Source of the DNA: Amoebophrya sp. A120 | Taxonomy: Eukaryota; Protista; Dinoflagellata | Length of the DNA: 64,000 bases | Direction of reading: 5' to 3' | NCBI GenBank assembly: GCA_905178155.1 | Contig: CAJINV010000014.1 | Location: 1,443,984-1,507,983, forward strand | Shown: piece by piece, positions 2,349 through 60,200 of the stretch | Position numbering within the stretch: the stretch's first letter is position 1 | How the letters are laid out: each line of letters starts with the position of its first letter | The notes under the pieces: model-generated | Told to the model about the DNA's origin: nothing | Database searches by the model: none | What the model saw: the letters and a program-made list of their open reading frames with translations, nothing else | Program-made: the position numbers and the translations under genes

Positions 2349-3978
2349 ATGATGGCCAATCAGGGGTTTGACCCGGCGAAGCAGGGTCAGCCCGTGATGA
2401 TGCAGCCCATGCAGCCTGGGCAACAGATCCCCATGGAACAAATGCAAATGGGGCAGCAGCAGCCCATGATGATGCAGCCCATGGGTACTAGTAGAGTTGT
2501 TTTTCCCTGTAATTTTTCTTCATCATCATGTTTCTATATTTTTTGCTGCTGTTCATTCTTTCGCAGCGGCTCTGGTCGCCTGTCCCGACTAGGCCAACAA
2601 CTTTTTGCTCTTTTCTACACGACCAGGTCAACCGGGAATGATGGTGGGTCCCCCCGTGATGGCCTCCGGCACTCCGATGGGCGCGCCCATGATGCAGGGT
2701 GGCATGATGATGGCTCCGATGGGTCCCGCACAGCTGGAGTGGGAGCGCCCCCGGGTCTGCGCGGAATGTACCTGCGAGTGCTGTTTGGCCGGATGCTGCC
2801 CTTGTATCTCGGTGAGTCAGACGATGACTTTGGCAAAGATGGGCGGGGCGCACGCCCTTATCGTCGGGATTTGCGTGTTCCTTCAGTACTTCTTCGACGG
2901 GTTTAGGAACTATGTACTGTTTTGCTGCATTTTTTTGATGAGACTGGATGTTCTTACTCTTAGCCTGCTGATCCTGATTTTTTGAATGATACTCCGCTTC
3001 AGTGTGATCATAGTTTGATAATCTACTGCCACTGCTTCATCCAACATCTTCCACGAAAACTTCTCCACCGGGGATCTTCCCTGAAGATTCGTGACGATTT
3101 CAAAAACACCAACACTAGCCTTCCGAGACAGACATGTGGAGACTGATCAAGCTTATCGCATGGCTGCTCAACATGGCGGCGGGGATTTGCGAATCTCTGG
3201 CCCTGATCAACTGGAAGCAGCTATCCCAAGTAATTTTTACGCACACGTGCTGCACAATATCCTGGCTTTGCAGGACAAAAGTGTTCTTCAATCCTGCTGC
3301 TCAGCATGACCAGTGATATACCCTAAGCTAGCGAAATTTGTGATGCATTCATTTGCCCGTGTGGGTGTGCGGGAAATTTGTATTGCATAGCAGGCAACCG
3401 GGCGCCACGTCAACGTTCGGGACCCAATATGAACTGCAAAAGTATCGTACTCGTATAAATGCAAGTCTTGCATTACAAATCTTTATCTTAAGGGAAATCC
3501 GCATTACAAACTTCCTTTCTCATGCTGAGGAAATTTGTAATGCATTTATACGAGTACGATACTTTTGCACAGGATACCTAAGTGGGAATTGCGGCGAGGA
3601 TTTCTGCTGTTTCTGTTGCTGCCCGTGCTACGCAATCCCCGCAGTACACCGAACGGTGGAGGACTGGATGCGGATGTATCCACAGTAAACTACTTCTTCC
3701 CGTGATTATGGACCACGACATCCAAAACACTGATACAAATTGCAATGGTCACCAGCGTGCAAATCAAAAGTCTATCTCTTTCTCTACCTTTTAGCATTAC
3801 AACTTCGATAAACAGCGGTTGCTACAGTAGTTTGTCATGCAGATCTTGTACGTCGTGCTCGTGGACGGTAGTAAAATTTGTACTCCATAAGATGGGCGGT
3901 CCCAACATGCAGCAGGGCGGGACTGGCGCACGGATGGCGGTGTCACCAGGGGGCATGATGCAGATGCAACAGCAATAG
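2349..3978 (+). CDS. PLAC8-like cysteine-rich membrane protein, paralog 1 (245 aa, 6 exons)
   Basis: Exons 2349-2484, 2627-2913, 3119-3221, 3395-3427, 3582-3676, 3895-3978 (738 nt, in frame). Two GT-AG introns plus three TIR elements. CCLAGCCPC and EDFCCFCCCPC motifs are PLAC8-like; Q/P/M-rich ends; collinear with paralog at 6552. Confidence 0.8.
3222..3389. mobile_element. TIR introner, family F
   Basis: TATCCCAAGTAATTT...GGGAAATTTGTATTGCATA; flanks GCAGC/GCAGG; absent from paralog 2. Confidence 0.85.
3428..3576. mobile_element. TIR introner, family B
   Basis: TATGAACTGCAAAAGTATCGTACTCGTATAAATGCA...TGCATTTATACGAGTACGATACTTTTGCACAGGATA; flanks CCCAA/CCTAA; absent from paralog 2. Confidence 0.9.
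3677..3889. mobile_element. TIR introner, family F (degenerate)
   Basis: TATCCACAGTAAA...AAATTTGTACTCCATA; flanks GGATG/AGATG; removal gives WMRMGG matching paralog WHRMGG. Confidence 0.8.
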
Positions 3979-4914
3979 CAACAGAAGGAGGATTCGAATC
4001 CCTTCGGTGTCGCGTTTTAGATTGCGAGGAATTTCCAAACGGTGAGTTAGAGGAGGTTGAACGAACGGAAAATCTAAATCGATGCTGAAGGATGTAGTTG
4101 GCTAGGGAAGACGGAGTCGAAGATCGAAAGCTGTTGGGGCCGCAGGTCGATGAAAGCGGAGAGAGAAAGTTTATTTTTTGGTTGTCGGAGTGGGAGTCCA
4201 AATCCGAATCCGATAGACAAAATTCAAACAATTTCATCTTCATCTTCTGTCAGGGCCACGTTCTTTTGCTCTCGGTTCTGTCAAGAAGCGTTCCTTCCAA
4301 CTGAAAAAAATAGCCTCTTCATGCATCGCATTGATATTCTTATTCTTATTCTAGTCCCTCGTCCTCGACGAGAGTTGTACAGGAGTTAAAGCGAATTCAT
4401 AACTTTGAAGAGGAGAATCTGCAGAAGCTTCGTATACCTCTGCGCTTGTGGTTGTGATCTTCGTATCGCACCACATTATGCCCTCGTGCATTGTATGATA
4501 TTCCTATGCGTGCCACATCGCTTGCGGTGTTGTATTGATTTAGATTAACATTTACCCAGAAAATGAAGCCTCTCGTGCTAACATTATGCTGCGCACTATT
4601 GCCAAAATGGATGAGTTGTTTCGCGATTCACTTCTATTTCATCCGTCCGTGTGTACAAAAGAAGAATATTTCCACGAACCGGGCCCGTAAGAATCAAAAA
4701 CCTATAGGTTGCACAAGCAGACAACACCCGCCCCCGCCGTGGTGTGTTAATGTTCTGGTTGATGTCTTCGTTTTGGTTGGGTTCTAGCGCTTTGTCTTTT
4801 TTGTGAGTCGTTTCTTTTCCTCCACCGCTTACGCCCCGCTCAAGGAAGAGCAAGAGGAGCAGACGCGTAATTATTTTCTTGCTTGTGTCTGAGATGAACT
4901 AGCGACGAGAGCAG

Positions 4915-6424: not shown

Positions 6425-6551
6425 TAAGGGTGGCTACTTCCTCTCCCGTTCGTGCCGCTGTCGTTTTCCAGTAGCCACGGTGGAATAATCTTAATCAGGG
6501 CGAGGCATTGATTTGGCGTTGACAAAGCGCCAGCACCTTCTCACAACACAG

Positions 6552-7803
6552 ATGGAGTACAAAACCCCTCAAAACGAGTACTCAGCACGGCCAGGCGAGT
6601 ACGGCAATGACCCTGCAGCTGGTGGCTCCACCTCCCCGCCCGGCGGGCAGCCACAGCCAGTCTTCATGCAGCCGCTCCAGCCCGGGCAGCACATACAAAT
6701 GCAGCCGATGGGCCAGCAGCCGATGTACATGCAACCCATGGGCGGACCAGGTGAGAAGTGCCTTGTTGGAAAAAAGCTCGACGTTCAATTTCATCATTGA
6801 CACGTTGCGGCATTGACTTGTAAAAGTAAAAAGACAACACAAGGTCAAGGTGAAACTACAATCGCGATGTATGAAGGATGATACTCTCATCTCACACTCA
6901 CTTCTGAGTTCCACTGGATCTGACACAACTTCTACAGGTGGTCCCCCAATGGTCGGCGCTCCGGTTATGGCTCAGGGCACGCCGATGGGCCACCCCCACA
7001 GCTTCGGCGGCGGACCGATAATCATGGCCCCCATGCACCAGGCCATGCTGGAGTGGCAGAGGCCACAGGTATGCTCCGAATGTACCGCGGAGTGCTGCCT
7101 CGCGGGTTGCTGCCCCTGCATATCCGTGAGCAGCACCATGACACTAGCAAAGATGACCGGCCCCTGGGCGTTTATAGTGGGAATCTTGGTGTTTCTCCAG
7201 TACGTGTCGGACGGGATAAGAAATTCGGTAATCGTCCATACCTGCTGCTTTTTCGTACTGCGTTGTTTGTCTTGCGTCATACTCATCGCAAATTTGGCAC
7301 ACTGTCGTAGCTCGGGTTGTTGGTGCATCAGTTTATGACACCGGCATGATGTTCAACATAAGTAAAACTAAAATTTAAATTGAAAAAAATCCAAAAATCA
7401 GCGTCTCGAAGACGACCCCTGGCCGGCCATCCGGGGTTTAGCCGGCCTGTTCAATCTCGTTTTCAGCATTTCGGAGGCCATGACGCTGGTAAAGTGGAAG
7501 GAAGCCACGGGGCGGCACATTCGCGTCCGCGACCCGGATGGTAACTGCGGCGAGGATTTCTGTCTCTTCTGGTGCTGCGTCTGCTACACCATTCCCGCCG
7601 TGCATCGAACAGTGGAAGACTGGCACCGGATGGGCGGAGGTTCCGGGGGTGGGCAGCTGTCGCCCAATTACCACATGCCACCAACATCTTTTCAGCACGC
7701 GGGGTTAGTGGCCGGGGGACCGACCCCCGTGGTGATGGGGCCGCCAATACAAGTGCAGCAGCAGCCGCAGCAGCAAAGACCAGCCTATCAGGAGGTTAGT
7801 TGA
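6552..7803 (+). CDS. PLAC8-like cysteine-rich membrane protein, paralog 2 (296 aa, 3 exons)
   Basis: Exons 6552-6750, 6938-7227, 7402-7803; both introns GT-AG at positions equivalent to paralog 1; no TIR elements. Confidence 0.85.
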
Positions 7804-8723: not shown

Positions 8724-11700
8724 ATGTCAGGACGTCGAGCGTCAGGCCGACGTAAGTTGCCGTGCGTGCTGATGTCCTCGTCCTCGAAGATGTTGCTGCG
8801 CTCCTTTGCTATTGCTTCCGGCGGGGCAAAAATCTTCACGTCGTTGAACCTCCTCGCGACTGCAGCAGAGCAACAAGACCGGAAGTTGAAACAACATCAA
8901 GCGCCACCTACTGCTTCAAGAACAGCACCAACAACTTCCGCCAAGAGCGTTGATGTCGTCGACCAGACCTCCGGGTCGTTATTTTCGCTTCTCTTCGGCA
9001 CAGCAGACCATGTTGCAGACTACGAAGATAGTTTGCTGCAAATGGAGCTGCAGAAGGACCAGACAAAGAAGAATGCGGCCGCAAGAACAACTCCGGAACA
9101 AGGGGATGAAGATCAACATCAAGATGAACGAAAGCAAAAGCTCCGTAAGCTGCAGACCATCACGCGCGCCGGCCCCGGCGCTCTGCCCGTGGAGAAGATC
9201 GAGGCCACGTACATGCAAAACCTGCTCCAGTGCCACGAGTATTCGCCAGTGTGTCCGGCGAGCTACGAGCCGTCCTGTTACATGTTCGCGTGGAACAGTA
9301 CGCAACAAATTTCCGCCGGCGTCCGGGCGGCGATCACGAAAGAAGACATCAACGAAATGCTGAAGGTCGGGGGCACGAATCTCAATTGCCGCAGGAACAT
9401 CGGGGTTCTTCCCGTAGCGCCAGGTTTGAAGGAGATGCGCAGACAACTGTACGCTTGGGCGTTGAACGGGACCTACAAGTGCCACGCGCAGTACTTGAAG
9501 TCCAACTTGAACGAGGACAATACCCCGATAAGCACGTCGGGGGGCATGTTCGAGTCGATCCGCGCGATCGGGAACGTCCCGCCGTTCACGGAGATCCCGC
9601 TGTACACAAACACCTCGGCTCATGATTTGAACGATCCAACACTGACCACCTGGAACGCGGCGGGCAGTTCGGAGCTCGACGAGGTTTCGAAGTGGTACGT
9701 GGGCGGATGTGGGACGTTGGGCAGCTGTGTCGGGGTGTACAAGAAGGTGATGCTGGTGTACGACCACACCGAGTATTTCGGGTTAAAAGACTCTTCCTGC
9801 TGGACTCGCGAACAAGCCATCCCGGTCGTCGCGGACCACAACACCCCGCACGACCTGCTGCTGAAGTGCGCCACTTCCTTGTACCACTTGCTCGCTCCGC
9901 GGTCCCTGGGTGCTTACGTGAAGTACCCGTTTGAACTACGCGACGCGGTTCTGAACGCCCAGGTCTTGTTCACCTGCGGCAACACGTATCACGACCCTGT
10001 GAACGATATTACCCGGTCGTTTCCGTCCTTGTGCCCGGAGGGGGGCGCCTGTACCGTGATGGGCGGGTCCGCCACGCACCAAACCCCGGCGGCCTTTGTC
10101 CACGTGAACGGGATTTGCGGGCACCAGCCACACGCGACGAATCTCCCGCAACTGCTGCAGTACGAGCACGGGGGGATCAGCTACGGTGCGAGTTTGGCGT
10201 CAGAAATCTGGATTCGAACGATTTTGGACATTGCCATCTCCCACATCGACCCAGAAGGGTATTACGCCGTGCAAAGGGCGGAGGCCATCGCCAGTGGGAA
10301 CAGGGTATATTAACTTGGATTCATGTAGTCGGAACACGAGGAAAAGAAGTAGAAGCTCAAGCTTGCTTATTCCCTGTATGCAAACTATTGCTCACAATGA
10401 CAATCAAAACATATGAACGCCGGCCTTATCTTGTGTATTCGTATTGTTGACGATGCCTGTGTTTATTTCAGATCCGGCGGAACAAAATCAGTAATCTTAT
10501 TTAATCTTTTCAAACAATTCTATCTCAGGTCTACCGGCGCGAATCTTGGATGGACTGTCACACGGCCGCTTCTTACTACTTCGCGACGGGTGTCTCTCTT
10601 GTTCTCTGGAACGTGCGGACCTCCGATGCGCACAACAGTAAATCCCGCATGGACTTACGAACCCAGGACCCGAATCTGTGGTGCCTCGCACTGCGGTATT
10701 TCGATATCAACTGCAAAAGTGTCTGGGTCTGGAAGAATCCGAACTTGTGATGCTGCATTTGGATTCCGAAAAAACCTGTATTGCATAAGCAGCAAAGGGA
10801 GTGCAATTTTGGCTACGCGGAGAGGGCATTTGTCATGCGGAATAGGCATCGCGAAGCCCTCAAAAAGTCTGTGATGCTAGGGCATGCATCACAGACATCA
10901 TGGGCCATGCAAAACGTGCATGACAAATCTCAGAACCTTCCAGACCCAGACATTTTTGCTTTTCATATTCGAGTTTGACAACCAGTGGACGTCTTGCCCG
11001 AGCGGCCACGCGAGTGAGTTGCTGAAGACGATCCAATATGCAATGCAAAAGCATCGTAGTAGTATAAATTGCATTACAAATTAGCCCAGCATTACAAATT
11101 GAATTTGTAATGCTGATCTGCGTTGAGAGAGAGATTTGTAATGCATAAATGCAATTACTACGAGTATGTACGATACTTTTGCAGAGCATATCCAAACGGA
11201 GGTCTCTTCGAACGCGGTGAAGGCCGTGGACTGCCATACCGTCCTGAATGTGCTGGGCGTGCGGCAATTCGGCCCGCCGGGGGACCACGGGATCGCGATG
11301 GGGGGGTCGCAGAACTTAACCCACTTGAACCCTTTGTATGTCATGAACATCACGGAAAACAACGGCACCGCAGCCCCCTGCAACCCGGAGTCCACGACGG
11401 AGAACCAGCGTTTATCAAATGCAAAAATGTCTGGGTCTGGAAGAATGCATGTTTATCATGCTTGTCTGGCATGACTCTTAAATCTGTCATGCACGTTACC
11501 CAAGAGCCCCACTTTTCTGTGATGCAGAAACGCAGTTTGTCATGCAGAAGAGGCAACACGTAGAAGCTCAGGAACATGTCATGCTGGGCCAGCAATTGTG
11601 GCCTCATCATGAGACCCCACCCTGCATCACAAGTTTCCAGACCCAGACATTTTTACATTTGATAGCGTTCCGGGACCAACAACGTGAACATCGAGTTCAC

Positions 11701-14700
11701 GATATCCTGAGTAAAAACGTACCCACCCCATAGTTGTAATGCAAATCTGCATGCTGAAAATGTTTCTCATGCGGAGCCCCATGAGAGGCATTGTATAGTC
11801 GTGCTTTGCAATTTGTCATGCTCCAATCAGCATGGTATGCTAGATCTGTGATGCTCCTGAGCTAGCTCAAACAGCACTACAATACGAGTCCAAATTTGTC
11901 ATGCAAAACAGCCAAAACTTGTGGATTTGTCTAGCCGATTCCCCATCTTGACTATGGTGTGGGTACGTTTTTACTCAGGATACACGAAACCGGTGATGCC
12001 GACCCGGCTGCCCAAACAGTCCCCGCACGGGCACTGCTACTTGTACCAGACCCGGGGGTACAGTGGCACCTTCCCGGACAAAAAATACGAGATCTGCAAG
12101 CCGGAAGACAAGCACGACGCGCGGTTCGCGATCCACGACCAGTACGGGGACGCGAACTACTATGTGAAGGGTGTCCAGTATCTGATCGGCACCGAGGGTC
12201 CGACGGCGCAGGCGAAATCAGCTTTATTAGCCGCGGAGGGCAACGTCGGGTTTTACCACCGGGTGGTGTTTGATCGCAACGCGACGGTGTACCCGGAACT
12301 GTACTTCGTCGGCTGTAGTGGTCCGAAATTACGATCTCTGTGCGGGTATTATTTGTTTTCCGGGGAATTCACCCAAGGAGCGACCATGTTCACCATGAGC
12401 AGCACTGTCCCTGGGGATCAGAAAGCAGTCGTGTACCGGCAAATTCGCGGCTCTACCTTCATCGATTCGCTTTTCGGCGAGCGTTGGACCATCGGGCCGG
12501 ACCCGAATACCGGGCTGCAAGCGAACTTCCTGGTCGATCAGAACCTCGCGAACTACGCGAACAATCTGAAGGCGTTCTACGGCGAGCAGACGACGTTTGT
12601 GAAAGTGCACAGACACACGTACGACTTGTACAATCCGACCACCGGGACGAAATTGACCGAGCAGGGGGTCTTCCTGGAAGTGGACCTTTTGATGACCGGA
12701 TCGAATTCGCATTTCGTCTACCCCGACCAGCAGATGGGGCCGTTTTCCTACAACCACGAAGTGCACGAAACGAGGAAGCAGAAGCTGGCGGACGTGTTTG
12801 GTGTGCCCGTGGCGCAAGTGTCTCCGCTGGACGGGTACAAGGGGAGGCTCGGCGCGGGAGATGGGAATAGTGCGAATGGTGGGGGAAAAACACCGGTGTC
12901 CTACTACATGACAAGTGTTGGCCTCCCGGATTCCTACCACGGCATGGTGAAGGAGCCGATGGACGAACTGACGTGCAATCAGGAGATGCGGACGAACGTT
13001 TTGTGCCCGATGCTCTGCACCATGACCAACACGTCCATCGTGAACAACCCGAACAACTGCACCTCGGTTTGCGAAAAGGAGTGCACGGGCGTCTACCCGG
13101 GGTTTGACATGAAAAGAGGTCTAAATTCCGCCGCAAGCATGACGGCGATGTTGGCGCATTTGGGGAAAATCAACTACAAGGCAAACCAGGACATTGTCAG
13201 AAACTTGCTGGGGGAAGAGGCGTACACGACGAGTGTTATCAACCACGGTAGCTTCGACTCTCCGTACTTGAAGCGGTACAGCGAGGAGCATTTTGGGTTG
13301 TTCAAGAAGATCTTCTATCCTCTGCAAAAGTATCGTACTCGTATTGCAAGTCTTGCATTACAAATCTTTTTTTTAAAGGTAAATCCGCATTACAAATTTT
13401 ATTTCTCATGCTGAGGAAATTTGTAATGCATTTATACGAGTACGATACTTTTGCAATGCATATCTTCGCGAATGAGAAAGAGGCGAGCGATCTTCTGCAT
13501 CCTTACGTGGCCAAGATGGACAAGATCGAGGACGATTTTTTGTCGGAAAAGGACCAGGAATTTTTGGAAGAGAAGTACGGAACAAAGAAAGATCATGATG
13601 CGAACAAGATGAACAAAAACTCTATCGACAAGAACATGCTAAAAGCGGTGAAGGCCAGTCGACAGTCTTACATGTTCATGAAGAGGATGAAGCAGAGGCT
13701 GTTCAATCCGGAATTTACGGAGTTGATCGAGACAAAAACCATCTGGACGAAGCCGCTGGACGAGATCGACGCGATGGATTATCCGGACGCAGGAGATGCA
13801 AATAGCCAACAGTTTTACTACGAAGAGCCATCAAGTTCATCTGTGGTTCCTCTGTCCAAAGTTTTCGGAACCAAAGTCACCTACCACGTGGACGAGAAAA
13901 ATTTAGATGACAGCGAGCAGCTCGTTCCCGCGGAAAAGAGGTCTCTCCGGAATAAATCGGTGGAACTGAAATCTAGCACGAAAACCCGGAAGCTGATGAC
14001 CAATAGCAAACGACGCCAGTTGTCGCATTTACCACTACCCTCCGCGAACAAACTCCGGTCCTACGACTGGAACGTCGACGCCTTGCACTTGATCGAGGAG
14101 CTGACCTTAACCGAGTTGACCGGCTGGACGCAGCCCGAGCACAATGCGAACACCTCGACGTTGATTTACGAGGTGAACAAAAACCGGTGGCGCTTGTCCG
14201 TCGGCGAAGCGGAATCGCTTTTCGAAGGGCAGTTAACCGCCGGGAAATTCACGTTTGAGTGCACGACTGGTTCCATGACGGATCCGTGTTTGAGTGCGAA
14301 TTTAGACCACTGGGTTGCGTGCGACGCCAGTTACATGTGCAACATGGAGCCGGAGCCGAAGTGGAAGTTACCAGCAGCGTCCGAGCAGGACATGTTCGCA
14401 AAGCAACTGGCGTATGACATGCAGCATGAGGACAACAACGCTTGCCACTTGCAAGAACCGAACAACAAGTGCACGACGTTTTACAAGCCGGAGTACCACT
14501 TCATCGAGAAAGCGCTAGTCCCCCCAAACGCATCTCCCAGTGCGAAAGAGGCCGCGAAGTGCAACAAAGACACGAACGACCAGAAGAGAAGAGACTCGCA
14601 GCTGTACCCCATCGTGACGAAGAACGAAAACGCGTGGATGTTCCAAATCGAGGACTGTGGCTTCCCGGGGGTTGACGGCTTGTACATCTACGACCCGGGG

Positions 14701-44975: not shown

Positions 44976-45752
44976 GACGCGGCAGGCTTCTGTTTCTGAA
45001 GCAGCAGAGCGCTGATGCTGAATATAGCGAAGATCAAGATCTATGTTTAATCCGACTTCTGGTTCTGCTGGTCTAGAATTACAGTACTTAAAACAACAAC
45101 TTGTAGGGTAATCCTAATCCGCAGCTCTTGCTCTACTTTAGTTTTGAGTAAAAAAGACCAACAGGATGAGTAAGTCACTTTTCCGCCTACCTATTCACCC
45201 GTGAAGTTTTCCTGAGTTGTTGTACTGGTAGTAGAGACGCGCCTTGTAGTAATACGCAAGGGCCCGTCATCTCGTTTGTCTTTGTCTTTGTTGTACTTGT
45301 CATTGTGTTTCTCTTCTTTCTGCAAGAACCGAAAAGAGCACAAAACGAGGGAAGTCGAGCGCTTGATTTTCTTTTGATGTCTCCGACGAGGAGCGGAGCG
45401 GGAGGAAGCGAGCAGGCAACGGCGAAATAGCAAGAACACAGTCGTGGGTTCTTGCTTGTATGATCCATCTCGTCCACCGACCTCGCACTCTACTGGTTTT
45501 ACTATGATGTCAGTTCAAGACTTCCCCTTCCTTTATTTTCTGTGGCGTCGTGTTCGCGCCAAGAAGGACACACAGAACGTTCCGTGAATGGACCGCACCA
45601 AAAACACAAAGAGTGAATCAGAAGATGAAGCTTGGTGACATGCGACAACTTGTTCGCGACAACCTGCGCCCCGCGGACAGCGACGTCGCTCCATAGTTTT
45701 GTTTGTCCCGCCAACGGTCGCCATCTCCTAGTCCTACTCCAGGCTGAGCAAA

Positions 45753-48700
45753 ATGGTTTCGACGTCCAAACGACAGACAAACTGCTCGAAAAGTAGCTTT
45801 ACCTCATCTACTTGCCGCAGCTTTATTGCTTTCGTTTGTCTCATTTCCCGAAAGGTACTACTACGCGGCGGTCTAATATTACCTCCACTGCCCCCCCTCC
45901 TCCTGCTGGAGAAGTTGAAATGCTTCGCGGCCGGAGAAGCAGCCGCAGCACCAACTTCAACTTCTGTGGGGCTTCTGGATAAGGGTAAACAAGAAGAAGA
46001 ACAACTACAGGAAGACGACGGGCCCCGAGGTGGTCGTGGCGGACGAGCAAAAACAAAAAGCACAACTACTCGCTTTTCCACGGCGCCCCCCCCCCCTCCG
46101 AGGAAAAATGACCGACAGGGAGACGATGATGTTGACGGCGAATTGAGAAATACAAATTCACGAGACAGCGACGAGAACGGTTCTGCCCTTCAAGAAGAAT
46201 CAGCAGTGGAGTTCTTGCAAAGCAGCGATACTCGTTCATCCGTTGGAGGTCCTCCACCTACTTTCGCTGCGTCCAGTTCTACCCCACAAAGCTTCGTGCG
46301 TGTGGTTACGGTTGACCACAAAGGGGCCAGCAGTAGTACCGAACAACGCCAACATCAACAAGAAGAAGCTTCTTGGGTGGAGGTAGAAAATGAAGACGAA
46401 CACAAGCAAATTAATATAACGGAGGGAAGATATCAGGAGCGGGAGCCGGATGCTTTACTTGAGACACCCAATAAGCGGAGCAAAGCTCCATCGACGTGCA
46501 GCGACGAGATCTGCGATGCTGTGACTCGGGCGAATCCACTGGCGGAGCGGCTGCGGCGCGCCAACGCACAGCTTCTTGCTCGGCCGCATACATACGCAAA
46601 TGGTGAAAATGGCCCGTCGGCATCGTCGAAAAACATCACCAGTCTGCAGCTGCTAAATTGGCGCCTCGATTGCCCCTGCGAGCTCGAAGGGCGGGACGAG
46701 GAAAATCAAAATGACGCGACAGCCTCTGCCTGGCCGTCCTCGCAGGTGTCGGGCGACGCAGCGGACATCGTTGCCGCTACAGACGGAACAACGTCGACTG
46801 GGAGTACTAGTGGACGCAGTGCGATGAATGGTCAAAATTTGACGCGCGAAGAGGACCGCCATGAAGATGAGCAGGGAACCTCCTCCCGATCGGAAGCGTT
46901 TTGCCGGCCTGAATTCCACGAGACGTTCAAGACAGCCAGCGTCTTCTCCACGACCCGAGTGGGTGGCTCTCGACAGGATGACGATGGCGATGACGGAGGT
47001 CCTCGCGCCAGCTATGAGAGTGCACAAGAACGACAGCTTCCCTTCCGCAGCATGTGTAAAAATTATAAAATTTCAAATCCGTTGATATGGCCGTACTAAC
47101 CACGGATTTCGCAAGTAGTCCAAAAAAATTCAGGGTCCTCGGGCGTGTCCATCGCGCTGGTCTTTTTGGTTATGTTGAATTTGGCATGCAAAGTTGAGGC
47201 ATGGAGTATCTAAGTTAATTTAACTAGTTAAGAAGGCGGTCCGCTCCTGGGGCCAACAGCTTCCGGAGCCACGGATTCGGGTCCCGAATCCGTGGACCAG
47301 GACATTGGGGATACTGGATCCGGACCGCCTTCTTAACTAGCTAGCTTAAAGAGATGACAATACAAAGAAATACAAGGAGGCCCCTATGCATGAGTTGTGC
47401 CTCCTCCTCCGATGCCATCATGCGCGGACCCTGAAATTTTTTGGACTACTTCGAAAATCCGTAGTTAGTACGGCCATAATTGATTGTTTATTGTTAGGTG
47501 GAAGAGGAATTGTCTGCCTCTGCGTGATGTGAGTGTGAGTCTTAAATTGTACAGAACAATTTCAGACTCACACTCACTTCACGCGGAGTGCCGCGCTCTT
47601 CAGCGATTGCAGTACTACTGCAATCGGTGATGTGCAGACGATTTTTTTCACGGAGCCCAAATTTCATCTGCCGTTGCTTGTGTTGCTCCTGATCATGGCC
47701 TTCAAATGAGGGGAAGGGTTGGTTATGCACTCTCATAACGGCGCAGGCTCTGCGTCACTCGCAGTTCTTCGCGGCGACCAGCCTGACCTGCGACCGAGGT
47801 GCCTCTCCGCGGGCCTCTACGATCGGGATCGGGATGCTCTGATTAACAGAATCGGAAAGGGTATGGCAGTGTCGGGTTCGAAATCGACAAGGTTGAAAGA
47901 GTTTGCGGCGTATAGTAATATTGTATCGACACGACGACCAGTAGTCGAAGAACCCGCAAGCGCTAGCTGCTGGCGCGTGACAAATGAAAACTTTGCCAGT
48001 AGCGAAGTTCAAAAATAGGAATGTTGCTGTTTGCTTTCTGTTTTGGCAAAAAAGGGTCTTTTTGTCGTGCTCTTGTAGCAGCTCTATCTGCAACATCATC
48101 GCACAACCTCAAACAGACTCATCGGAGAATCTCCCTGACTTGCCTGCTCGTGCTCTTCAAGAAAGGCACTCTGACTCTGTCTGTGTGCCCCGCATAATTT
48201 TGTGCATTGCAAATTGTTATTGTTTACTGTGTCGCCCATTTCAAACCAGACACTTCCATACAGGGAGAGCAGTTTTTTGTCGCCGTGGACGAGCAGGAGG
48301 CGCAGGTAGTGGCAAGAAAGTACTTGCGAGCGATCAAGCGCGCACCATTTGCCAAAAGGGTGGTCGCAAAAGCTCCTGCTTCGTGGTCCTCCTTCAATGG
48401 CCTGATCTGGGAACGTCCACGACATAAATACAAGTACGATCCGCCGTATGAGGAGGAGAGGTATTACATGATGGAGAACTCCTCGCTGCAGTCTTGGCTA
48501 TGCTCGGTAAAAGTATCGCGACACTTACACTTTTAGAAGTAAAGCTAAAATTTATACTGCAGTAGAGTTGTAGATGTAGTTCTTTATGTATGTTGGGCGG
48601 TGGCTTAGATGCATCTGGTTTAAAGGTGGCGTTTGCAAGTGCTGACGAGTGACCTAAAATGAAATAATCAGACTACTTGTCACGCCAGACTGACTGCACA

Positions 48701-50560
48701 AAATTGCACGACGAGTGCGATACTTTTGCGCGGCATATTGGTTCCACCACGACAACTCCACAGCTTCGCCCGACCAAATAAAAAAGCGGCATTGCGGACG
48801 ATCGTGGTCGGACGATAGCCATGACTTTGAAAAATGGCTTGGCCCTTTCGTGCGTAGAAGCACTGTCTTACTGAACGCGTACATCGGTGATCTTCTGCTG
48901 TGCCATTCGCCCCCAGTTTCCCAACGCGCACTGGAGCTAGCGAGACCTCCAAGCGCGGACCTGGGTTTTCCAACACCCTGGTCGCTCACCGGTGTGGCGA
49001 TTTAACATGTGGTCTCGGCGATTCTCTTCACGAGCGCGCAGCTGGCTGGCGTGAATTTCCTGACCCGGAAGGGGATCGAGTTAACCGGAGGGGAGCGCGC
49101 ACAGATGGCGAATCAAACGGTGGGGACCGACATCCAGTCGACCACGACGTCCCTCCGCAATGATGAAAGAACGAATGACGCTGATCTCCAGCGCAAGCTC
49201 GTTGCAGTGTCTGCCCCCGTGTCCTTTCGGATGCATGAATGCAGCGGAGACGAAAACGTGCGTCTGTGGGATTTGGCGAAAGAGTACGCCTACAAGAGCG
49301 CTATCCGAGTGCACAACAAGGACAAGAGCTCGAACGCGTTGCTGCCTCCACTAGAAGCATCGTCGGGGGTTTCGAAACTTATCATGCTGTAAAATAAAAG
49401 ATGTAGAGCGCCAAGAAAAGGGATGACGTTATGTACTCAAAAGTAGGTGGCGCAGAGAATGTCTTCCGTTTCTTCTATTCGACTTCGGTATTTGCGTCCA
49501 ACATGACCACATATGAGGTAGAAGAGTGTCGGGGGGTCGGGTTGTGCACTCTCAGACACGCGGGTCTCAAGCCCCATGCCTACGCTGGTCGATTCTGGTG
49601 GTTGACCAGGGAGGAAAGCGCCGATATCATGAGGAAAAACGTCTTCCACAGCCCATACCCAGCATGAAAATGAATATATCTGCGGCTGGAAGATCAAGAC
49701 CTAGCCTCCCACTTCCTTCTGCACGTTCGCCACGATCGCAGATCCATGTTGCAAAGAGCCGCGCGGGAGATGCACTCCGCGGTAGATTTTTTTCTGGGTA
49801 TTATGCAAATTCGCATGACAAATCGAATTCGACACTGGGGGTGGAGAATCATACGTTTTTACACAGCATAGCGGACGCCACCGAGAAGCTGCGGACCTAC
49901 ATGGGGCCGGGCACCCTACCAGTGTTGGTCTTGGGGGATGTGGTGGACGTAACGGGAAGGGCAGACTGGCAGCAAAAACAATTCCGAAAACGTTTTGCCC
50001 TCGACTCCTGGAGAGGCTGGTGGCGCCGCTTTAAAAGCCCGGACATGCATCTGATGATGCGTTGCGAAAAGTGGGCTGACCGGGTGAACATTCGCGCCAT
50101 CTTGGCAATCGAGGAAAAAGACGTGGACCAGATTCGAAACGCCGTCCGGGCTGCGGTTCGCTTGGTGGCCAACAGTAAGAAAGAGCCGATGTCCAGCAGA
50201 AGTGGCGGAACCAGCAGCGCCGCGGGTTTCCCAGCGTCCGGTGTGGGCGAGGAGTCATCGTTTTCGGCGCATCAAGAAAAAACCGCAAGGGAAGCTGTAG
50301 CAGGCAGCCAGCAGCTTTTCGACGCATCAGAGGAACAGTCGGCGGCTCAATTTTCTGTACAAGAGGACTCTGTCTCTCAGTTGCCGTTGAAGCTGGTCGT
50401 AATGACGCTCGCGGAGGCCGACAAAGATCTCAAACTATTTGAGAACCGTGACAAGACGAAGGAGTGGATTCCGGCTGATCTGCTCGCAGAGTGGTACAAT
50501 CGAAACGCCATTGATTTTGCTTCAACCCAAGGACGGACAGCCGCAACTCCGAGCAGGTGA
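45753..50560 (+). CDS. Large hypothetical protein with N-terminal hydrophobic segment (multi-exon; two junctions unresolved)
   Basis: Coding blocks 45753-47055, 47747-47861, 48266-48498, 48743-about 49369, about 49447-49624, 49876-50560; GT-AG intron 47056-47746 and three exonic TIR elements. In-frame TAA at 49003 and the junction near 49370-49450 are not resolved. Confidence 0.6.
47086..47478. mobile_element. TIR element family G (about 53-bp TIRs) inside a canonical intron, with nested inverted repeats
   Basis: TATGGCCGTACTAAC...GTTAGTACGGCCATA; flanks GTTGA/ATTGA; inner 20-bp IR 47224-47243/47321-47340. Confidence 0.88.
47862..48260. mobile_element. TIR introner, family E
   Basis: TATGGCAGTGTCGGGTTCGAAAT...ATTTCAAACCAGACACTTCCATA; flanks AAGGG/CAGGG. 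Confidence 0.85.
48499..48737. mobile_element. TIR introner, family B (degenerate)
   Basis: TATGCTCGGTAAAAGTATCGC...GCGATACTTTTGCGCGGCATA; flanks TTGGC/TTGGT. Confidence 0.82.
49625..49870. mobile_element. TIR introner, family J (degenerate)
   Basis: TATCATGAGGAAAAACGT...ACGTTTTTACACAGCATA; flanks GCCGA/GCGGA. Confidence 0.8.
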
Positions 50561-51720: not shown

Positions 51721-52721
51721 ATGGACGAGTGGCAGTTTGACAGTTCAAAAACAGCAATGAAGTCCGACTACCAGCACGCTTGCGATTTCCTGAAGAAAAG
51801 GTGGTCACCCGTGAGGAAAAAGTATTTTTCTATGACATAACCTCCAATTTTTATTTTTGTTTCCTGGCTGTCTCTGTCGTTCATTCACATTCTACATTTA
51901 CATTTTTTTCATGTTCACCTTACTTCTCCTCGTGCGCATGGGTCCGTCGTCGCTGTCCTCAATATATATGGTATGTGATTGTCTTTGTCATTCTCATTGT
52001 CTTTGTCCTCACTTGTCGTTGTGTTGTCTGATATAGAAAAAACCAAATATGTTTGCGGCACCATCTCTGCCCAAAAATAAACCAGGAAAGCGGACGTTCC
52101 CATCCCCTTCGACATGCGAGACAGCAAAAATGTGAAGACGCTGTTCGGGCACCCGTTTGCGCACAAGTTATCCCCAGAAAAAGTGTTAACGTTTACGGTT
52201 TTCGCAGATTGCAGCCATGCATCACAAATTTAGCCTAGTGTGCATGCTATGCATGACAAATTTGGGCACGCTTTGTGATGCATTGCCGCATCACAAATTC
52301 CTTAAACGTATAACACTTTTTCCTGTGATACCAGTGTGAGTCGCTTTACATCGACAGTTACCAATCCGACGCGTGGCATAGAAGAGGTATTATTTAATAT
52401 CGGAAGATGAAAATGACGCATTCTCGTGTCGCAAATGCTTGCAAACAGGTTCAGAGGAGGACGGGGGAGTATATCCAATCATATCGTCCTCATCGTCATC
52501 CGAATTATGAATCTTACCAACCAACAAATACAAAACTAGCCAGAAGTACTTCTAAAGGCGAAATAAATTTCAAACATATACAGAAAACGCAAAACCACTA
52601 TGCATCACCATCAGGTCTCCACAAGGCTCGGAAGGAGTGTGGTATAAATGGGCTATCCACCACGGATGTGACCAAAATGGCGGAGGGAATGGACCTGATG
52701 AAGAATGTGGTGCGGAAGTAA
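51721..52721 (+). CDS. Small hypothetical protein (about 106 aa, 4 exons)
   Basis: Exons 51721-51800, 52086-52168, 52336-52386, 52615-52721 (321 nt, in frame); two GT-AG introns and one TIR element. Confidence 0.6.
52169..52330. mobile_element. TIR introner, family H
   Basis: TATCCCCAGAAAAAGTGTTA...TAACACTTTTTCCTGTGATA; flanks CAAGT/CCAGT; several GCAT(C/G)ACAAAT motifs. Confidence 0.85.
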
Positions 52722-54200: not shown

Positions 54201-57200
54201 ATGGCGTCCTCCTCGACTTCTCCGCCGCCGCCTGACTCGATGAACACCGCCAAGCTCGTCGAGGACCTGGAGAAGACCATTTACGCATGGCAAAAGGATC
54301 ACAGTCGCACTACCTAGTAGAAAACAAAATTCTTGCATGATGAAAATGAATCTTCTCCACTCCCGCCAAATTAATTGAAAACTTAAAAGTGCACCAGGCA
54401 AGGAAGAAAGCCACGACTCCCTGTAGAGAACCTCTTGGCCGCCGTCCCGTCTTACCATTTTTCACTTCGCTTGTTCACGTCACCTGAAGATTCATCTTCT
54501 TGACCTCCTACTTGGGAACCAGGAGAGAAGTTTGATGACATCACGCGTGCATGCAATCAGATTCAGAATCGGAAGTAAAAGTGCAGCTAGGATACAACTT
54601 TTGCGCCGGATACCACCCTGCAGAAGTTCAAGCTTAAATACAACAGCCAACCCGAGACCGGGATTATCAGGCACCTGAAGTACTACGACTTGACAAATAC
54701 CGGAAAGCTGGATTGGAAGTCGTTTCAAAAATCGATGGAGCAATACGCGATTGGGGCTCCGTTGGACGTTTTGCAGCTATTGTTCAACCGATACGCGAAC
54801 GCCACGAAAAACCCCCTGCAGTCCAACACCGGGTCGCTTCTACTGGAAATCCGGTCCTTCGCAAAATTTATCGTAGACGGAACCGTCCGGACGTATTACG
54901 CAAGTCTGGCAGAAACCCAAGAAAGCGCTGCAAATGGTGCGGCAATAAGGGAAGAAGTAAACGTACATGATAAAAATCTTTCTTGCAAAGTAGAAGTTCG
55001 GTGGAGATGTTGTCTAAATTTTAAAAATCAAGTGTTTTTTTTAATACTGCTTTTCTTTTTCAAGTGTTTCTTTAGTTGCTCGAAATGATCATGATAATTC
55101 GTCAACAAGAACACGTCGACTCTCAAGTTATTTGACAAGTAGAAACCTTTTATTCAACACCAGCCGCGCTCCACCGCTGGTTCATCCTCTCAGCGTTCCT
55201 CCACGGCGCCCCGCCCTCCCCACTCGCCGACAGCACCCTCGACGAAGACGGTGCCTGGTTTTCTGCGCGCGTTGCGGGAAAACTTGTTCCCCCGGGGCCC
55301 CGGGAAGGTGCTGGAACTCGTGAATTTGTTCATGCAGTACGACGAAAAAAACTACCGCGTGCTCCCGATAGAACTCCTGATGAGCATCCTGGATCAAAAG
55401 CTGAACTTGGTCGACGGCGCACTATGCGTTGCAAATGTGTAGTCTGGGGGTCGTGGGTAATTCGTGATGCGAAAGTTCAAGGACAACGACGAGATCTGTA
55501 TCATGGCGTAGAAAAGATCGCTCTGGCATGCAACACTCTTCAGCAAGAACACCAACTCGCTGCGTTTCTCCAGACGACCCAGACATGTCTGCCTTTGATA
55601 CGCGGGAGATTTAGACCCGCTTGCGTACAACAAAATCGACGGCCGCACCATGGCTCTGGTGTTGCCCACCTGGGCGGATCCGTACGACAGGAACCTAATT
55701 CTCTACGACGATTTCCTCGCTGAATTGAAGATTCCGCTCAACCACGAAAGAAGACAAGCGGTGCGGGCGGCGTACAGGAAATTAGACCCGGATCAGGAGG
55801 GGTTTGTAAACTTGAGCGATTTGGAACGGGCATACAATGTTAGCAGGTAAAAAAATTCGTGGTCGTGAGGATTGTTTTTTTTGCATCCCTGTAGTACTTC
55901 TTCGTTCATTTGTCGTATGGAAAAAAAGATCGAGAAGGTCTTGACGTAATTTATTCAGTGATGTTATCACTACCTTCAGACTAATAAACTCCACTTCCTC
56001 ATGAAATTCCAATCGAATCTGATAGAAGCAGGAGCTCCTCGCAGTGAAGATAATGATTCACAGCTGCACAAGATTCACGTCGTCACTACGTACATCCAAA
56101 AATATTGAACCTATCCCCCAGGCACCCTTACGCCGTGATGGGAGCTCAAGTGCCCGACTCCCTTTATAATGAGTTTCTGGACAGCCTGATGCACTTTCTC
56201 CAGTACCGCCGTGGGGTTTTGGACATCTCCAAGACGGCGGCGGGCGAGCGGATCCCCTGGGAGGAGTTCGAGGCCTACTATCAAAAGTAAAAATGTCTGG
56301 GTCTGGAAACTTGTAATGCTGGGTGGCGTCTCATGATGAGGCTACAGATGCTGGCTCAGCATGACAAGTTTCTGAGCTCCTAGGTGTTGCCTATTCTGCA
56401 TGACAAACTGCGCTTCTGCATCACAGAAAAGCGGAGCTCTTGGGTAACGTGCATGACAGACTTAAGAGTCATGCCAGACAAGCATGACAAACGTGAATTC
56501 TTCCAGAGGACCCAGACATTTTTACAGTTGATCCCTACTACGAAATGCTGAATGGTTGCTATCCCGAAGACACCACTTTTCTGTGCATCCTCACCAGGTG
56601 CTGGGATGTCGACAAGCCCTCTGTGGGTGGTACTGGAGTAGACAGGACTTCTGCCACCTCATCTGCCACTGCAGCACTCGGAGGTGGGGGCCAAGCCGGC
56701 GGCCCACCAGGAGCTGTGCTGGACTTCAACGGGTATGGGGAACAAAGTGCGGGGCAGCAGGTGACGGGGAAGATAAACAAGCAGAGTCAGCAGCAACAGC
56801 AAATGCTCGAAGACGAATATTACAGGCGGGACGCGATGCCGGCCGCCGGGCAAAAGGGGAAGGAACGGGTGGGGTTGCACCACTGGCAAGCGAACACCTT
56901 GGCGGAAAGCCACACGTACAGGAACGTCGGAGAAGTTGCCGATTTGAAGGTACTCGAGGAGACTACAGCACTGTCGTGGCGTTTGATAGTTTTCAGTTTT
57001 TCATCTTGAATTTATAGGAGGTTTGAGATTTTCGCAATTTTTTTTCTTATGTACTTTACTATCATGTTGCCTTGGTTCATTCTTGCTCGCTCGCATTTTT
57101 TTGCATGCTCCTTCCTACAGGGCATCTTCCGTGAGGCCTGCGAGTACCTGTCGCGCAAGGGCGGCGTGCGGATGGCGATGGAAGTGGTCCGCAACTACGT

Positions 57201-60200
57201 GCTAGCCGATGACAACCTGGATGACTATCTGGACCGGGCAGAATTTCGTAAAGCTAGCAGGGACTCGGGGCTACGGTTCACGCAGGACGAGGAAAGCGAC
57301 ATTTTCGATCTGCTTGGAGAGGTTACGGTATCACGGTTAATTGGACTTTGACTATCGATGAAATTTTTCCAGGTGGCGGAGCAAACCTTTTTGAAAAACG
57401 CATGACATACATAGCACAGAAACAAAAATTACGCAGACCAAACGCCCAGTGAAAAACCCGTCTTCCGACCCGCAGCCGGAGCGGCTCCTCCCCCTGTTTT
57501 CCTTTCTCCGCGCATTTTTCGACGGCGGTTTGAATGCAGCGCGCTACGACATTGTCCACGCCGCATGGGTATCAAATGTAAAAATGTCTGGGTCTGGAAG
57601 AGTCATGCTGTTTCTGCATGACACAGCAGGTGGGTTTTTTAAGTCGTTTTTTAAGATGGGTTTTTTTTGCAGAAATCACTTTTTTAAGATGGGTTTTTTC
57701 GTATTTAGGACTGTGCCATAGTAGATGACTTTACCGCTTTTTTACTTTTCTTTTATCCCTCAGCGCTGGTGGGTCTGCCGGCAAAATTATCCCTACTCAG
57801 ATAGCTACAAAGCTCATCCCGCAGCCGTCCCAGGAGCTCTTGTGGCTGTCTCTCGGTAGAGATCGCTTTGCCCGTGCTTATTCCACTCAGAGTTTGCTGG
57901 GTAGGTGGCTACCGTTTTAAGTTTATAAACGAATGGGACGCCCTGCCCTTAGCCTTCCAACATGACACAGCAGGTGCAGGTCTGGCATGCTGGAAGCTCT
58001 AGCATCACAGGTTTCGAGAAGCTTCCGCAATGCCGAACCCGCATGACAAATCCCCCACTTTGGTGACAGAAAGTGGGCAGCTTTTGCTACCCATGCATGA
58101 GAGATTTTTGTGTGTTCTGAAATGCGCATGACAAGTTGCTCTTCCAGACCCAGACATTTTTACATTTGATAATGGGCTCTGGTTGCCGGGGGAGACAGCG
58201 CCGTGATTCCGCCACAGAATTTGAGGCAACACCTATTGAGAGGAAAAATCCCCCCTCCCCATATTGAAAAGGTATGTTTCCAAAAATTTGTGTTGCGGAT
58301 TTGAGGTCACAAATCACATCTGTCTTGCAAGAAGACAAGGGCAGAAGCTTCCGCCTCATTATGGAAGCGATTTGCCACGCTGTTGAGCCTCAAGGGGAGC
58401 CGTTTGCCATGCTGAACAACTAGACCCATACGCCCCTACCTAGCCTGGGGATCTGGCCGCCATGCCTTTCTGCAATACAAAGCTGATCTGTGGCCACAGA
58501 TCAGCATCACAAATTTCCGTTTTGAATTTGATATGGGGAGGGGGGATTTTTCATTTTGATAACACCTCTCCTTTAGCACGCACCCGGAGGTGCTGCAGGC
58601 ACCGAGCGCCGAAGCAAGGGACAGGCTGACTCAGCAGCGTATACTCTTTCCTAGTTGATGATTTTATTTTAGTTTTAGAGCGAAAAATGTTTCTAGATCA
58701 TGTAAGGAAAGCAGCTTCAGGGCTGCATGCGCACGATAAGCACTTTTAGGTTTATTGGCCATTGTTTGTTCGTTTGCCTTTCGGTGCATCAAGTTGCAGC
58801 CGGTCGTACTACCGTGCGGCAGCCAGGCACGATTCTGATAGTGCTGAAATTCAAATGAATTCGAATTCCACATCAGTGACGACCGAGTTTCTGGACACTT
58901 TTTCTCTGTACGTGAACGTGACCGGAAGACTCAGCGAGGAGGGCAATCTGAACTTCGCGACGTTCCTCGGCTACTTCGAAATCTACTCCGCAATGATCAC
59001 ATCTGACGCCTACTTTGACGTCGTCATCCGCCGTATGTGGGGCCTCTCGTCTATTCCCTGAAAATTAACCATCTCCATCCAATTTGTCATGCAAAACATG
59101 TAGTAAAGTCTGTGCTTGTCATGCAAAAAGTGGATGGGGATGGTTAATTTTCAGGGAATATCGTCTGATAAGGACATCGAAGAAATCGACGGTCTGCCGC
59201 CAGTATCAAATGCAAATATTTTTACGTCTGGGTCTGGAAGATTAGATTGCAAGATTCATTTGCTACAGCGCTTGCCCGGCAACGGCATGACCATGATCGA
59301 AGACTCTGCGCTGCTCTATTGCATGCTCACGAGGAAGATGAGCTTCCTCTTCCTGCTAAGAACCTGTTATGCAAACACGCGGCTACCATGCGAAATAGGC
59401 AACAGATTGTATTTGTCGCCACACAAAAATCATAGTACTCATGACTTTCAACCTCATCTTCAACCTGTCAAAATCTTAATCTGTCCTGCTTGGCTGTGCA
59501 ACCTTGTAGTGCGGTCATTTTTATTCGCAGACTCGCGGCAGAACTTTCCAGGTGCAGACCCATATTTGCAATGTAAACCCAGTCCTGCCACAAGCCCCGA
59601 CCAGTCAGAAGGTCTCGCGGTCGTCAAAGTCCAATGTCAACGAAGACACCAGTAATTTGGATATGAAAGTGCACAACTCCATCTCCCCCTCGTCTTCTGA
59701 CTTCTGAAGGCGTACGAGTGTGAGAAGCATCAGCAACACAGTCGGCGACAGAATGAATGTGGGCCCCGCATGACAAGAAATTTTCCCCGCGGCGCGGATT
59801 GGAGTACTCTTTGAAAGCGGGCCAAAGTTTGTCTTGCAGAGAGTGCTTAATCTAAAAAAAAAAAGGCACAAACGAAACAGGATGTGGATTTGGTATTTTG
59901 CATTATACCAATGGGGGCCGCGGGAGTTGTGCGCTCTCATATTAAAGTACGCGGGTTTAGGATACGGCGCCAACCTTGCGAACGTATCGGACGGGAGGGG
60001 CTCGAATAAGGACGCAAAACAGTACCCGAATCCGACGTCCCCCATCTACGAATCCAGCCACGTGCGGGCGGCGCTCTTTCAGGAGCCTGTCAAGCTAAAC
60101 TCTGCGGACGACTACTTTCACCACCTCTGTCGCAGAATAAGAGGGATCTTGAGCAAGTACAGTATATTTAGTAAAAAGTGTTTTTATGCATTTTTTCGCA

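Follow-up and report, generated by a model that had tools for sequence, protein, structure and literature searches.

In the marine parasite Amoebophrya sp. A120, 29,850 introners belonging to 1,954 families have been described, with a mean length of approximately 240 nt (Farhat et al. 2021, PMC7789003). In the text of that report, introner ends consist of TAT, seven looser nucleotides and at least three A residues, the direct repeats measure 3–5 nt (the Fig. S19 legend gives 5 bp), and the introners are supported by RNA-seq and lack GT-AG borders. Among 40 of the 58 A120 rows listed by Gozashti et al. (2025, PMC12130899), most are classed as TIR DNA elements of unknown superfamily, many of them 100–350 bp long. 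For instance, family 38 features a 5-bp TSD, TA/TA termini and homology to an LTR integrase-like transposase.

Comparable introns occur elsewhere. The nonconventional introns of euglenids (PMC11282704) share inverted ends, duplicated targets, non-canonical borders and a likely MITE origin with the elements described here, but have a different end motif and leave as full-length circles. Introns of Fritillaria borealis (PMC13326754) are transposon-derived, lack GT-AG borders and are processed by an altered U2 spliceosome, which is a precedent for the mechanism favoured below; they keep preferred borders (AG-AC and AG-AT), whereas our elements are fixed at just the second and third positions. Amoebophrya goes unmentioned in that paper. 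Among DNA transposons, hAT5 and the CMCT clade, which includes Transib, also combine a 5-bp duplication with inverted ends, but CMCT ends are mostly CA..TG rather than TAT...ATA (PMC12730594).

We analysed a window of 64,000 nt of the A120 genome (contig CAJINV010000014.1, positions 1,443,984 to 1,507,983). Three exon queries each matched a deposited A120 protein with 100% identity (P0001, P0002 and P0005). The window elements share the host, the TAT-type inverted ends, the direct repeat and the organization in families with the published introners and, for elements with RNA-like data, also the removal from RNA at non-GT-AG borders. Judged by sequence, they are the published A120 introners, and the system was already known. 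The earlier note mentioned that introners had been reported in Amoebophrya; its reading is overstated on this point, the elements being those very introners and not just similar to them.

Some properties differ from the published accounts. A figure legend in PMC7789003 gives the splice position as variable or unknown, whereas the window suggests a single register. Automatic TSD and splice calls in 40 of the 58 A120 rows of PMC12130899 differ by family (2–6 bp), whereas one 5-bp rule suits all families seen here. Splice-site tallies from the supplement of the latter paper were not counted as support, because annotation can slide within the repeat. A single register, a strand-specific TA, orientation counts and a shared internal motif are absent from the text of PMC7789003, figures aside. 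The fixed register, invariant 5' TA, equal orientations and shared motif may be new, although the figures of that paper, or the other 18 A120 rows and files 13-14 of PMC12130899, may contain the register or the motif.

Elements, target duplications and coding context

We counted 45 elements in the window, with a median length of 252 bp (range 109–1411 bp). All 42 elements previously placed at 3222..59577 were recovered, and three had been overlooked (3677-3889, 47013-47737 and 59662-59941). The features are as follows.

3222..3389, +, element in PLAC8-like gene; repeat mismatched at base 5, where the 3' copy is retained
3428..3576, +, element; repeat mismatched at base 3, where the 5' copy is retained
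3677..3889, +, element overlooked earlier; repeat differs at base 1
6552..7803, +, element-free paralog (P0003) of PLAC8-like gene; empty-site control for 3222, 3428, 3677
10705..10967, +, element, largest family; within 2177-aa frame
11037..11190, +, element; within 2177-aa frame
11413..11664, +, element, 90% identical to 38464, opposite orientation; within 2177-aa frame
11703..11982, +, element; within 2177-aa frame
13316..13462, +, element; within 2177-aa frame
17566..17827, +, element; within 2177-aa frame
17879..18198, +, element; silent repeat mismatch at base 4
22169..22366, +, decayed element; within 1414-aa frame
23087..23319, +, element; within gene model
23957..24208, +, element, slides into GT-AG; within gene model
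24451..24608, +, element; repeat differs at bases 1-2
24830..25081, +, element; within gene model
25647..25861, +, element with ATG end; within gene model
26217..26496, +, element; within gene model
30736..30917, +, element; repeat differs at bases 3-4, deposited protein P0001 retains 5' copy of base 4
31019..32429, +, 1411-bp element, additional interior sequence; repeat intact at 2/5 bases
38044..38377, +, element; within gene model
38464..38715, +, element, slides into GT-AG; within gene model
39079..39403, +, element; within gene model
39504..39756, +, element; within gene model
39836..39991, +, element; within gene model
40357..40525, +, element, slides into GT-AG by sliding test (overlooked earlier)
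40561..40812, +, element; RNA-like contigs (records 9, 15) stop precisely at 3' end
41683..44980, +, host gene; RNA-like contigs equal fully spliced length (length comparison)
42328..42484, +, element; missing from RNA-like contigs
42565..42705, +, element; missing from RNA-like contigs
43099..43405, +, element; missing from RNA-like contigs
43465..43725, +, element; missing from RNA-like contigs
43782..44056, +, element with ATG end, opposite orientation to 40561; missing from RNA-like contigs
44366..44637, +, decayed element; missing from RNA-like contigs, with base 5 of the repeat retained from the 3' copy
47013..47737, +, element overlooked earlier, contains 47086; P0005 retains 5' copy through base 3
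47086..47478, no strand, long fold-back element nested in 47013, outside exons
47862..48260, +, element; repeat mismatched at base 1
48499..48737, +, element; repeat mismatched at base 5, X5 record 18
49625..49870, +, element; silent repeat mismatch at base 3, X5 record 19, probably paralog
52169..52330, +, element; local open frame only
55423..55600, +, decayed element; present in DNA-like run, gone from RNA-like contig by length
56279..56533, +, element with ATC end; RNA-like piece restarts at 3' end
57570..58171, +, 602-bp element; local open frame only
58234..58561, +, element; local open frame only
59052..59160, +, shortest element; local open frame only
59204..59577, +, decayed element; local open frame only
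59662..59941, +, element overlooked earlier, end type as in 47013; local open frame only

As had been claimed, all elements begin with TAT (45/45) and nearly all end with ATA (41/45, the others being two ATG, one ATC and one AAA). The list was compiled with a TAT start as a requirement; when this was dropped, every clear match still started with TAT, and five shuffled controls yielded 0–1 TAT-starting matches each. The full motif, TAT followed by seven nucleotides and AAA, is found at the 5' end of 33/45 elements, compared with 53/664 TAT sites overall (elements included). The 5-bp duplication is real, but it is perfect in 27/45 elements rather than in all; 12 have one mismatch, 5 have two and 1 has three. 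In a second assembly, 225/406 candidates have a duplication of length 5, and any other length from 2 to 9 accounts for at most 29. This assembly also contains near full-length relatives, up to 97% identical, of 30/43 window elements. The earlier estimate of about 11 families with distinct ends is a fair count of end types, and BLAST comparison of interiors revealed 7 groups of related elements. Orientations are balanced in the two largest groups (13:15 and 9:9). Being short and non-coding, with inverted ends and a duplication of fixed length, the elements have the features of MITEs, or non-autonomous TIR DNA transposons.

According to the gene models, 44/45 elements lie in a coding context, where forty had been claimed; the exception, 47086, is nested inside 47013. 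Six (52169, 57570, 58234, 59052, 59204 and 59662) have a local open frame without a whole gene model. Removal yields open whole models of 242 aa (3 elements), 2177 aa (7) and 1414 aa (7), and 95/104 flank pairs are in frame with a single 5-nt copy. The frame had been said to be restored every time; a blind codon-model test agrees at 37/43 junctions, chance being one third. The domains named previously fared less well. PLAC8 was matched only weakly (Pfam E 0.007, below cut-off), and NHR/SPRY and calcyphosin, which had no Pfam match on short exon pieces (7 among the 17 pieces searched), are putative names.

Removal from RNA and position of the cut

Two RNA-like contigs extend over six elements and two GT-AG introns; their observed lengths, 1699 and 1885 nt, are exactly those predicted for complete removal. 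The RNA evidence consists of the lengths of contigs and the ends of their pieces in two runs, both from one study and labelled RNA by a guess, and the reads cover window positions 38000-57999. Two further elements match by length in an RNA-like contig after a neighbouring acceptor is chosen post hoc. For contig 14, the first model predicted 1376 nt versus 1406 nt observed, and matches once the GT-AG acceptor is moved 30 nt upstream, which is weaker evidence. X5 records 18 and 19 have many differences and probably derive from paralog P0006, and the hints they give on the register are secondary. Run X9 is uninformative on window genes, since its 97 matching reads out of 3.3 million are partial fits, mostly one element end with foreign flanks. 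No RNA data set is recorded as containing the stretch that was looked up.

In the DNA-like run X1, which may be the window's own source, one 4040-nt contig crosses element 55423 without a gap, and the ends of several elements are likewise crossed by contigs. Its depth is even (41-45) on unique sequence. Contig pieces were used because X1 repeat contigs swamped the joint table. X1 contigs drop rare forms, so a minority excised DNA form would escape detection. These data support the proposal that the elements are removed from RNA together with 5 nt, without GT-AG and by one rule for many families; retention in transcripts and removal from DNA had been named as refuting outcomes, but the RNA-like lengths fit removal and X1 keeps 55423.

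Deposited proteins limit the position of the cut within the duplication to at most base 4 (3222, 48499), at least base 3 (3428, 47013), at least base 1 (3677, 47862) and at least base 4 (30736, 31019). Ten junctions were checked, and only a cut after base 4 is compatible with all 8 informative ones, which points to a single register; the choice of base 4 depends on two deposited gene models. RNA-like pieces place the cut before base 5 at 44366 in both runs, and comparison with the element-free paralog scores best for cut 3 or 4. The second assembly offers 11 mismatch codons, too few to place it. We infer that the intron is N-TAT...ATA-NNNN, and that one target copy is restored.

In this register, none of the 45 introns has GT-AG borders, and the GT-AG or GC-AG borders of U2 introns are thus missing. 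Three elements (23957, 38464 and 40357; 3/43 tested) can be slid into GT-AG, and not two as previously thought. Neither G at +1 (27/95) nor AG at the intron end (9/95) is preferred above background. To our knowledge, no ordinary spliceosome tolerates the lack of both.

What selects the splice sites

In 251 elements of the second assembly, the 5' TA is invariant, whereas its 3' mirror varies 12 times (sign test, p 0.0005; strands inferred from flanking codons by the codon model, related copies not being independent). The third base shows an opposite, weak asymmetry (6 variants at the 5' end, 3 at the 3' end; second assembly). Normal introns of the window start with GTA in 10/12 cases. T is the second base in all nine commonest A120 splice types (Table S4 of PMC7789003), and those of strain A25 start with TT, with a TTA motif. 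The resemblance of N-TA to the GTA of normal introns speaks for a relaxed spliceosome rather than for a route guided purely by hairpins. A120 is reported to have U2, U4, U5 and U6 as well as almost all spliceosome proteins, and U1 snRNA was not found (PMC7789003).

We consider it somewhat probable that A120 introners disperse as non-autonomous DNA transposons and that an ordinary spliceosome with loosened requirements takes each element out of the RNA together with 5 bases. The left end would contribute T and A to a donor of the GTA type, the first G being no longer needed. The right end, composed of A, a T-run and ATA, would together with end pairing set the acceptor four bases beyond the element, with no AG. 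As both ends bear the same sequence, removal would occur in either orientation. The earlier proposal of one dedicated, structure-guided pathway stands as to one rule across families; a dedicated pathway guided by structure alone is so far not supported, given the 5' TA constraint and the folding data.

The strongest rival, which we regard as possible but unlikely, is that a separate spliceosome-independent system, either an endonuclease with a ligase or a euglenid-like route, acts on the paired ends, with cuts placed one base ahead of the stem and four bases beyond it. The predicted fold pairs the ends in 36/41 elements, the staggered offset is fixed and works in either orientation without AG, U1 was not found in A120 (PMC7789003), and euglenid introns built in the same way exit as full-length circles (PMC11282704). 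Selection for RNA pairing, however, was not seen: G-U is not enriched relative to A-C in the stems (window, 25 vs 23; second assembly, 60 vs 79). Ends are unpaired in 5/41 elements; a contig or a deposited model shows removal of three of these (55423, 30736 and 3677), and the constrained bases are exactly those in common with normal donors. That A120 has such a second system, which makes approximately 30,000 exonic insertions seamless and whose enzyme co-evolved with the ends, is correspondingly a tentative proposition.

Less probable still is that the chemistry is spliceosomal, but a new lineage-specific protein, bound to the internal motif or to the end sequence, takes over site choice from U1 and U2AF. 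U1 was not detected, Farhat et al. suggested such a subunit (PMC7789003), and 244/251 second-assembly elements contain an internal motif common to families. The strict motif is, however, missing from the removed elements 44366 and 55423, shows no strand bias, and its forward form is missing from 19/95. This reading overlaps with that of a relaxed spliceosome, the one difference being what picks the sites.

A hairpin flanked by a short direct repeat is the classic setting of a reverse-transcriptase jump, and all RNA evidence passes through cDNA; that true mRNA retains the elements is nevertheless very improbable, as the 2177- and 1414-aa frames exist only after removal, flank pairs agree with a single 5-nt copy, and neither a single register nor a strand-specific TA would be expected. 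Excision from an expressed genome copy, as for ciliate IESs, agrees with the DNA-transposon anatomy and the duplicated target but is equally hard to credit, since X1 is contiguous across 55423 at single-copy depth and contigs lacking elements also lack GT-AG introns.

Mobility and implications

Along with the relaxed spliceosome, we favour an integrase-like transposase encoded elsewhere, which would move all families via the shared internal motif. This motif was rejected as a branch point, as strand bias is absent (134 vs 163) and removed elements lack it. The earlier note had proposed a search for long elements with the same TIRs encoding a transposase; neither the window nor 614 kb of loci yielded one, 7 long candidates and the 1411-bp element included. 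In L018 (1104 bp) the sole open stretch is repetitive and GC-rich, L064 runs over several short elements, and L071 lacks a long frame, as the 1411-bp element lacks a convincing ORF. An integrase-like ORF is noted for family 38 in PMC12130899, but no element with such an ORF was found in the window or the loci examined. The commonest end sequence has 0 matches in viral contigs.

The fixed register and strand-specific TA allow sharp tests of how A120 introners are spliced, as they define the two intron borders, the two bases of importance and the place where a branch should be sought. If the spliceosome drops the first G and the final AG, the view of how far terminal bases are needed changes; if the spliceosome is not involved, a new nuclear splicing route would be at work. 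In addition, one register rule could let approximately 30,000 junctions be re-annotated consistently.

Elements of the window and their host genes

Requiring TAT-starting inverted ends within a perfect 5-bp repeat, a strict scan returned 27 matches, 26 of which are real. Without the TAT requirement, 70 raw pairs were found, versus 8–19 in five shuffles, which yielded only 0–1 TAT-starting pairs each. Relaxed scans and by-eye reading gave a final list of 45 elements (3222 to 59941, named by start position), three more than the 42 counted in the earlier note. All 45 start with TAT, and 41 end with ATA. The 5-bp duplication that had been described at every element is borne out, but the repeats are perfect in only 27/45; 12 elements have one mismatch, five have two and one has three. 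Sliding into a GT-AG register, thought possible for two elements only, is indeed rare, being feasible for three of the 43 tested. The most frequent inner end sequence has 19 copies, versus 0.02 expected.

When an element and 5 nt are removed, the best-scoring frames of the two flanks agree in 37/43 cases (p about 1e-12). The six misses involve Cys-rich or short exons, an adjoining GT-AG intron or, for 47086, a position within another element. Full gene models, which remain open across 3, 7 and 7 elements, encode 242, 2177 and 1414 aa, and partial models are open across 5, 2, 2 and 2 further elements. The PLAC8-like gene contains three elements, none of which is present in its neighbouring paralog. 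Of the domains expected to become recognisable after removal, PLAC8 receives weak Pfam support, while the NHR and calcyphosin exon pieces have no Pfam match. The modelled genes of the window all lie on the + strand. Other features were observed as follows.

10649–18895: 2177-aa protein with seven elements and zero GT-AG introns in the model
62431–63345: DUF488 domain (E 1.5e-14) in an intron-free frame
45300–50500: recent duplication, as indicated by sequencing depth that is about doubled in run X1 and by a paralog with 91% identity (protein P0006), whose sequence is the same at two junctions
47013–47737: element enclosing the fold-back element 47086–47478, which has long near-perfect arms and lacks the internal motif GCATnACA
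32479–33482: 65-nt direct repeat over an exon end and donor, copies 939 nt apart, enclosing a GC-rich insert that lies within a GT-AG intron and bears inverted arms of its own
4906–6424: 33–63 nt repeat in three copies, 653 and 801 nt apart, bordering GC-rich blocks between two PLAC8-like genes
253–820: AT-rich palindromic repeat array of a different kind

Removal from RNA and position of the cut

Eight sequencing runs contain the stretch searched, none of them recorded as RNA; four of the eleven listed were compared over 38000–57999. X1 is DNA-like, since its depth is an even 41–45 across unique sequence and element 55423 is spanned by a contig without gaps. In the RNA-like X4 and X5, depth is uneven and contigs skip parts. 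Lengths of 1699 and 1885 nt, predicted before the comparison by taking out two GT-AG introns and six elements with 5 nt apiece, equal the observed 1699 and 1885 nt, a test of total length and end positions in which only the outer pieces of the contigs are listed. A third contig, covering two elements, matches at 1406 nt only after a GT-AG acceptor is shifted by 30 nt. Excision at the DNA level, to be set against the X1 contig that retains 55423, is very unlikely, and so is a cDNA artefact; X4 and X5 come from a single study and, if they are RNA, were read through cDNA.

Because a perfect repeat conceals the cut position, the splice border is left unknown in the Fig. 3 legend of Farhat et al. 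(PMC7789003). In contrast, mismatches between repeat copies reveal it. Ten junctions were compared with deposited proteins, and eight were informative. The cut lies at or before base 4 of the repeat at 3222 and 48499, at or after base 3 at 3428 and 47013, at or after base 1 at 3677 and 47862, and at or after base 4 at 30736 and 31019; 49625 is silent and 47086 has no junction. The deposited models are not merely left- or right-aligned, as one protein limits the cut position from both sides. We infer a cut after base 4, the sole position compatible with all informative junctions, base 4 being specified by two gene models. RNA-like pieces at 44366 in both runs agree with this position, and the element-free paralog scores best for cut 3 or 4. 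The intron would therefore be N-TAT...ATA-NNNN, a register in which 0/45 elements have GT-AG borders. Among the normal introns modelled in the window, 10/12 start with GTA, a mis-indexed thirteenth being left out. At 40091–40264, the frame is restored only by removal of an AT...AG intron, which starts with A-TA and holds one internal motif; this intron may represent a decayed element in which the N-TA donor was retained and an AG acquired.

Terminal polarity, stems and the internal motif

A motif scan of metagenome contigs detected at least 151 stretches among ~530 estimated, all of one assembly prefix. The sample analysed, 148 loci (614 kb including overlaps) of this second assembly, has no unique sequence in common with the window. 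An exact 5-bp repeat flanks 225/406 short candidates, versus 29 or fewer for any other length; the same scan recovers 26/43 window elements. Of 264 candidates with at most one repeat mismatch, 251 have flanks long enough. Keeping one 5-nt copy leaves the frame intact in 95/104 elements with clear coding flanks, and neither G at +1 (27/95) nor AG at the end (9/95) exceeds background. Orientation is even (13:15 and 9:9 in the largest groups). Among the 251 elements, the first two bases show 0 variants at the 5' end versus 12 at the mirror bases of the 3' end, as counted from a scan treating both ends alike; the third base shows 6 variants versus 3. The corresponding window counts are 0 versus 4, from a TAT-selected list.

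Element ends are paired in the predicted fold of 36/41 window elements, two long ones being left out, yet five decayed elements without end pairing are removed or in frame. The stems show no excess of G-U pairs over A-C (25 vs 23 in the window, 60 vs 79 in the second assembly). Stem positions 4 and 7 are often unpaired (position 7 is paired in 16/43 and 46/95), which suggests that an outer TAT segment is separate from an inner segment used for binding.

The 8-base motif GCATnACA, read in either direction, occurs in 117 copies in 11.8 kb of elements versus 14 in 52.2 kb outside, and in 244/251 second-assembly elements, where the outermost copies mostly lie 38–39 or 46–48 nt from the ends. Spacing peaks at 31–33, 39 and 43–44 nt are partly due to family descent. 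Since the motif occurs without strand bias and some removed elements lack it, it is read as a putative DNA-level binding site of the mobilising enzyme.

Published introners and the splicing mechanism

Each of three exon queries matched, at 100% identity, a protein carrying the name Amoebophrya sp. A120. Excerpts of Farhat et al. 2021 (PMC7789003) report 29,850 A120 introner copies in 1,954 families, with direct repeats of 3–5 nt and inverted repeats in which an initial TAT is followed by seven looser bases and then three or more A. This motif is found at the 5' end of 33/45 window elements. Given protein identity and the match to the published description, the window elements are, by sequence, the known introner system of A120. 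Excerpts of PMC12130899 class most of 40/58 A120 family rows as TIR DNA elements, and one family has a 5-bp TSD, TA termini and integrase-like homology. The element end at 57570–57601 occurs in raw RNA run X9 with different flanks and zero exon reads, so this family may also exist in a related strain; in contrast, introner families are described as strain-specific.

Most likely, and with moderate confidence, a non-autonomous cut-and-paste element that duplicates 5 bp upon insertion would be spliced by a relaxed U2-type spliceosome, which would take N-UA as donor and locate the acceptor by its position beyond the right end of the element; a branch would be expected near the A some 16 bases inside the 3' end. 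No transposase was found in the window or in the 614 kb of second-assembly loci. Excerpts of PMC7789003 report more than 60% non-canonical introns with RNA-seq support, and U2, U4, U5 and U6 snRNAs with U1 not found; tunicate introns provide a precedent for a relaxed spliceosome. Other Amoebophrya strains use GT-AG introns, according to excerpts of PMC12005148. A separate cut-and-ligate system is a lesser, rather doubtful possibility, and a new site-selecting protein acting on the same spliceosome is more unlikely still. Neither the cut register nor the polar TA nor the shared motif was found in the literature searched, as available in excerpts; these three features make the splicing question testable.
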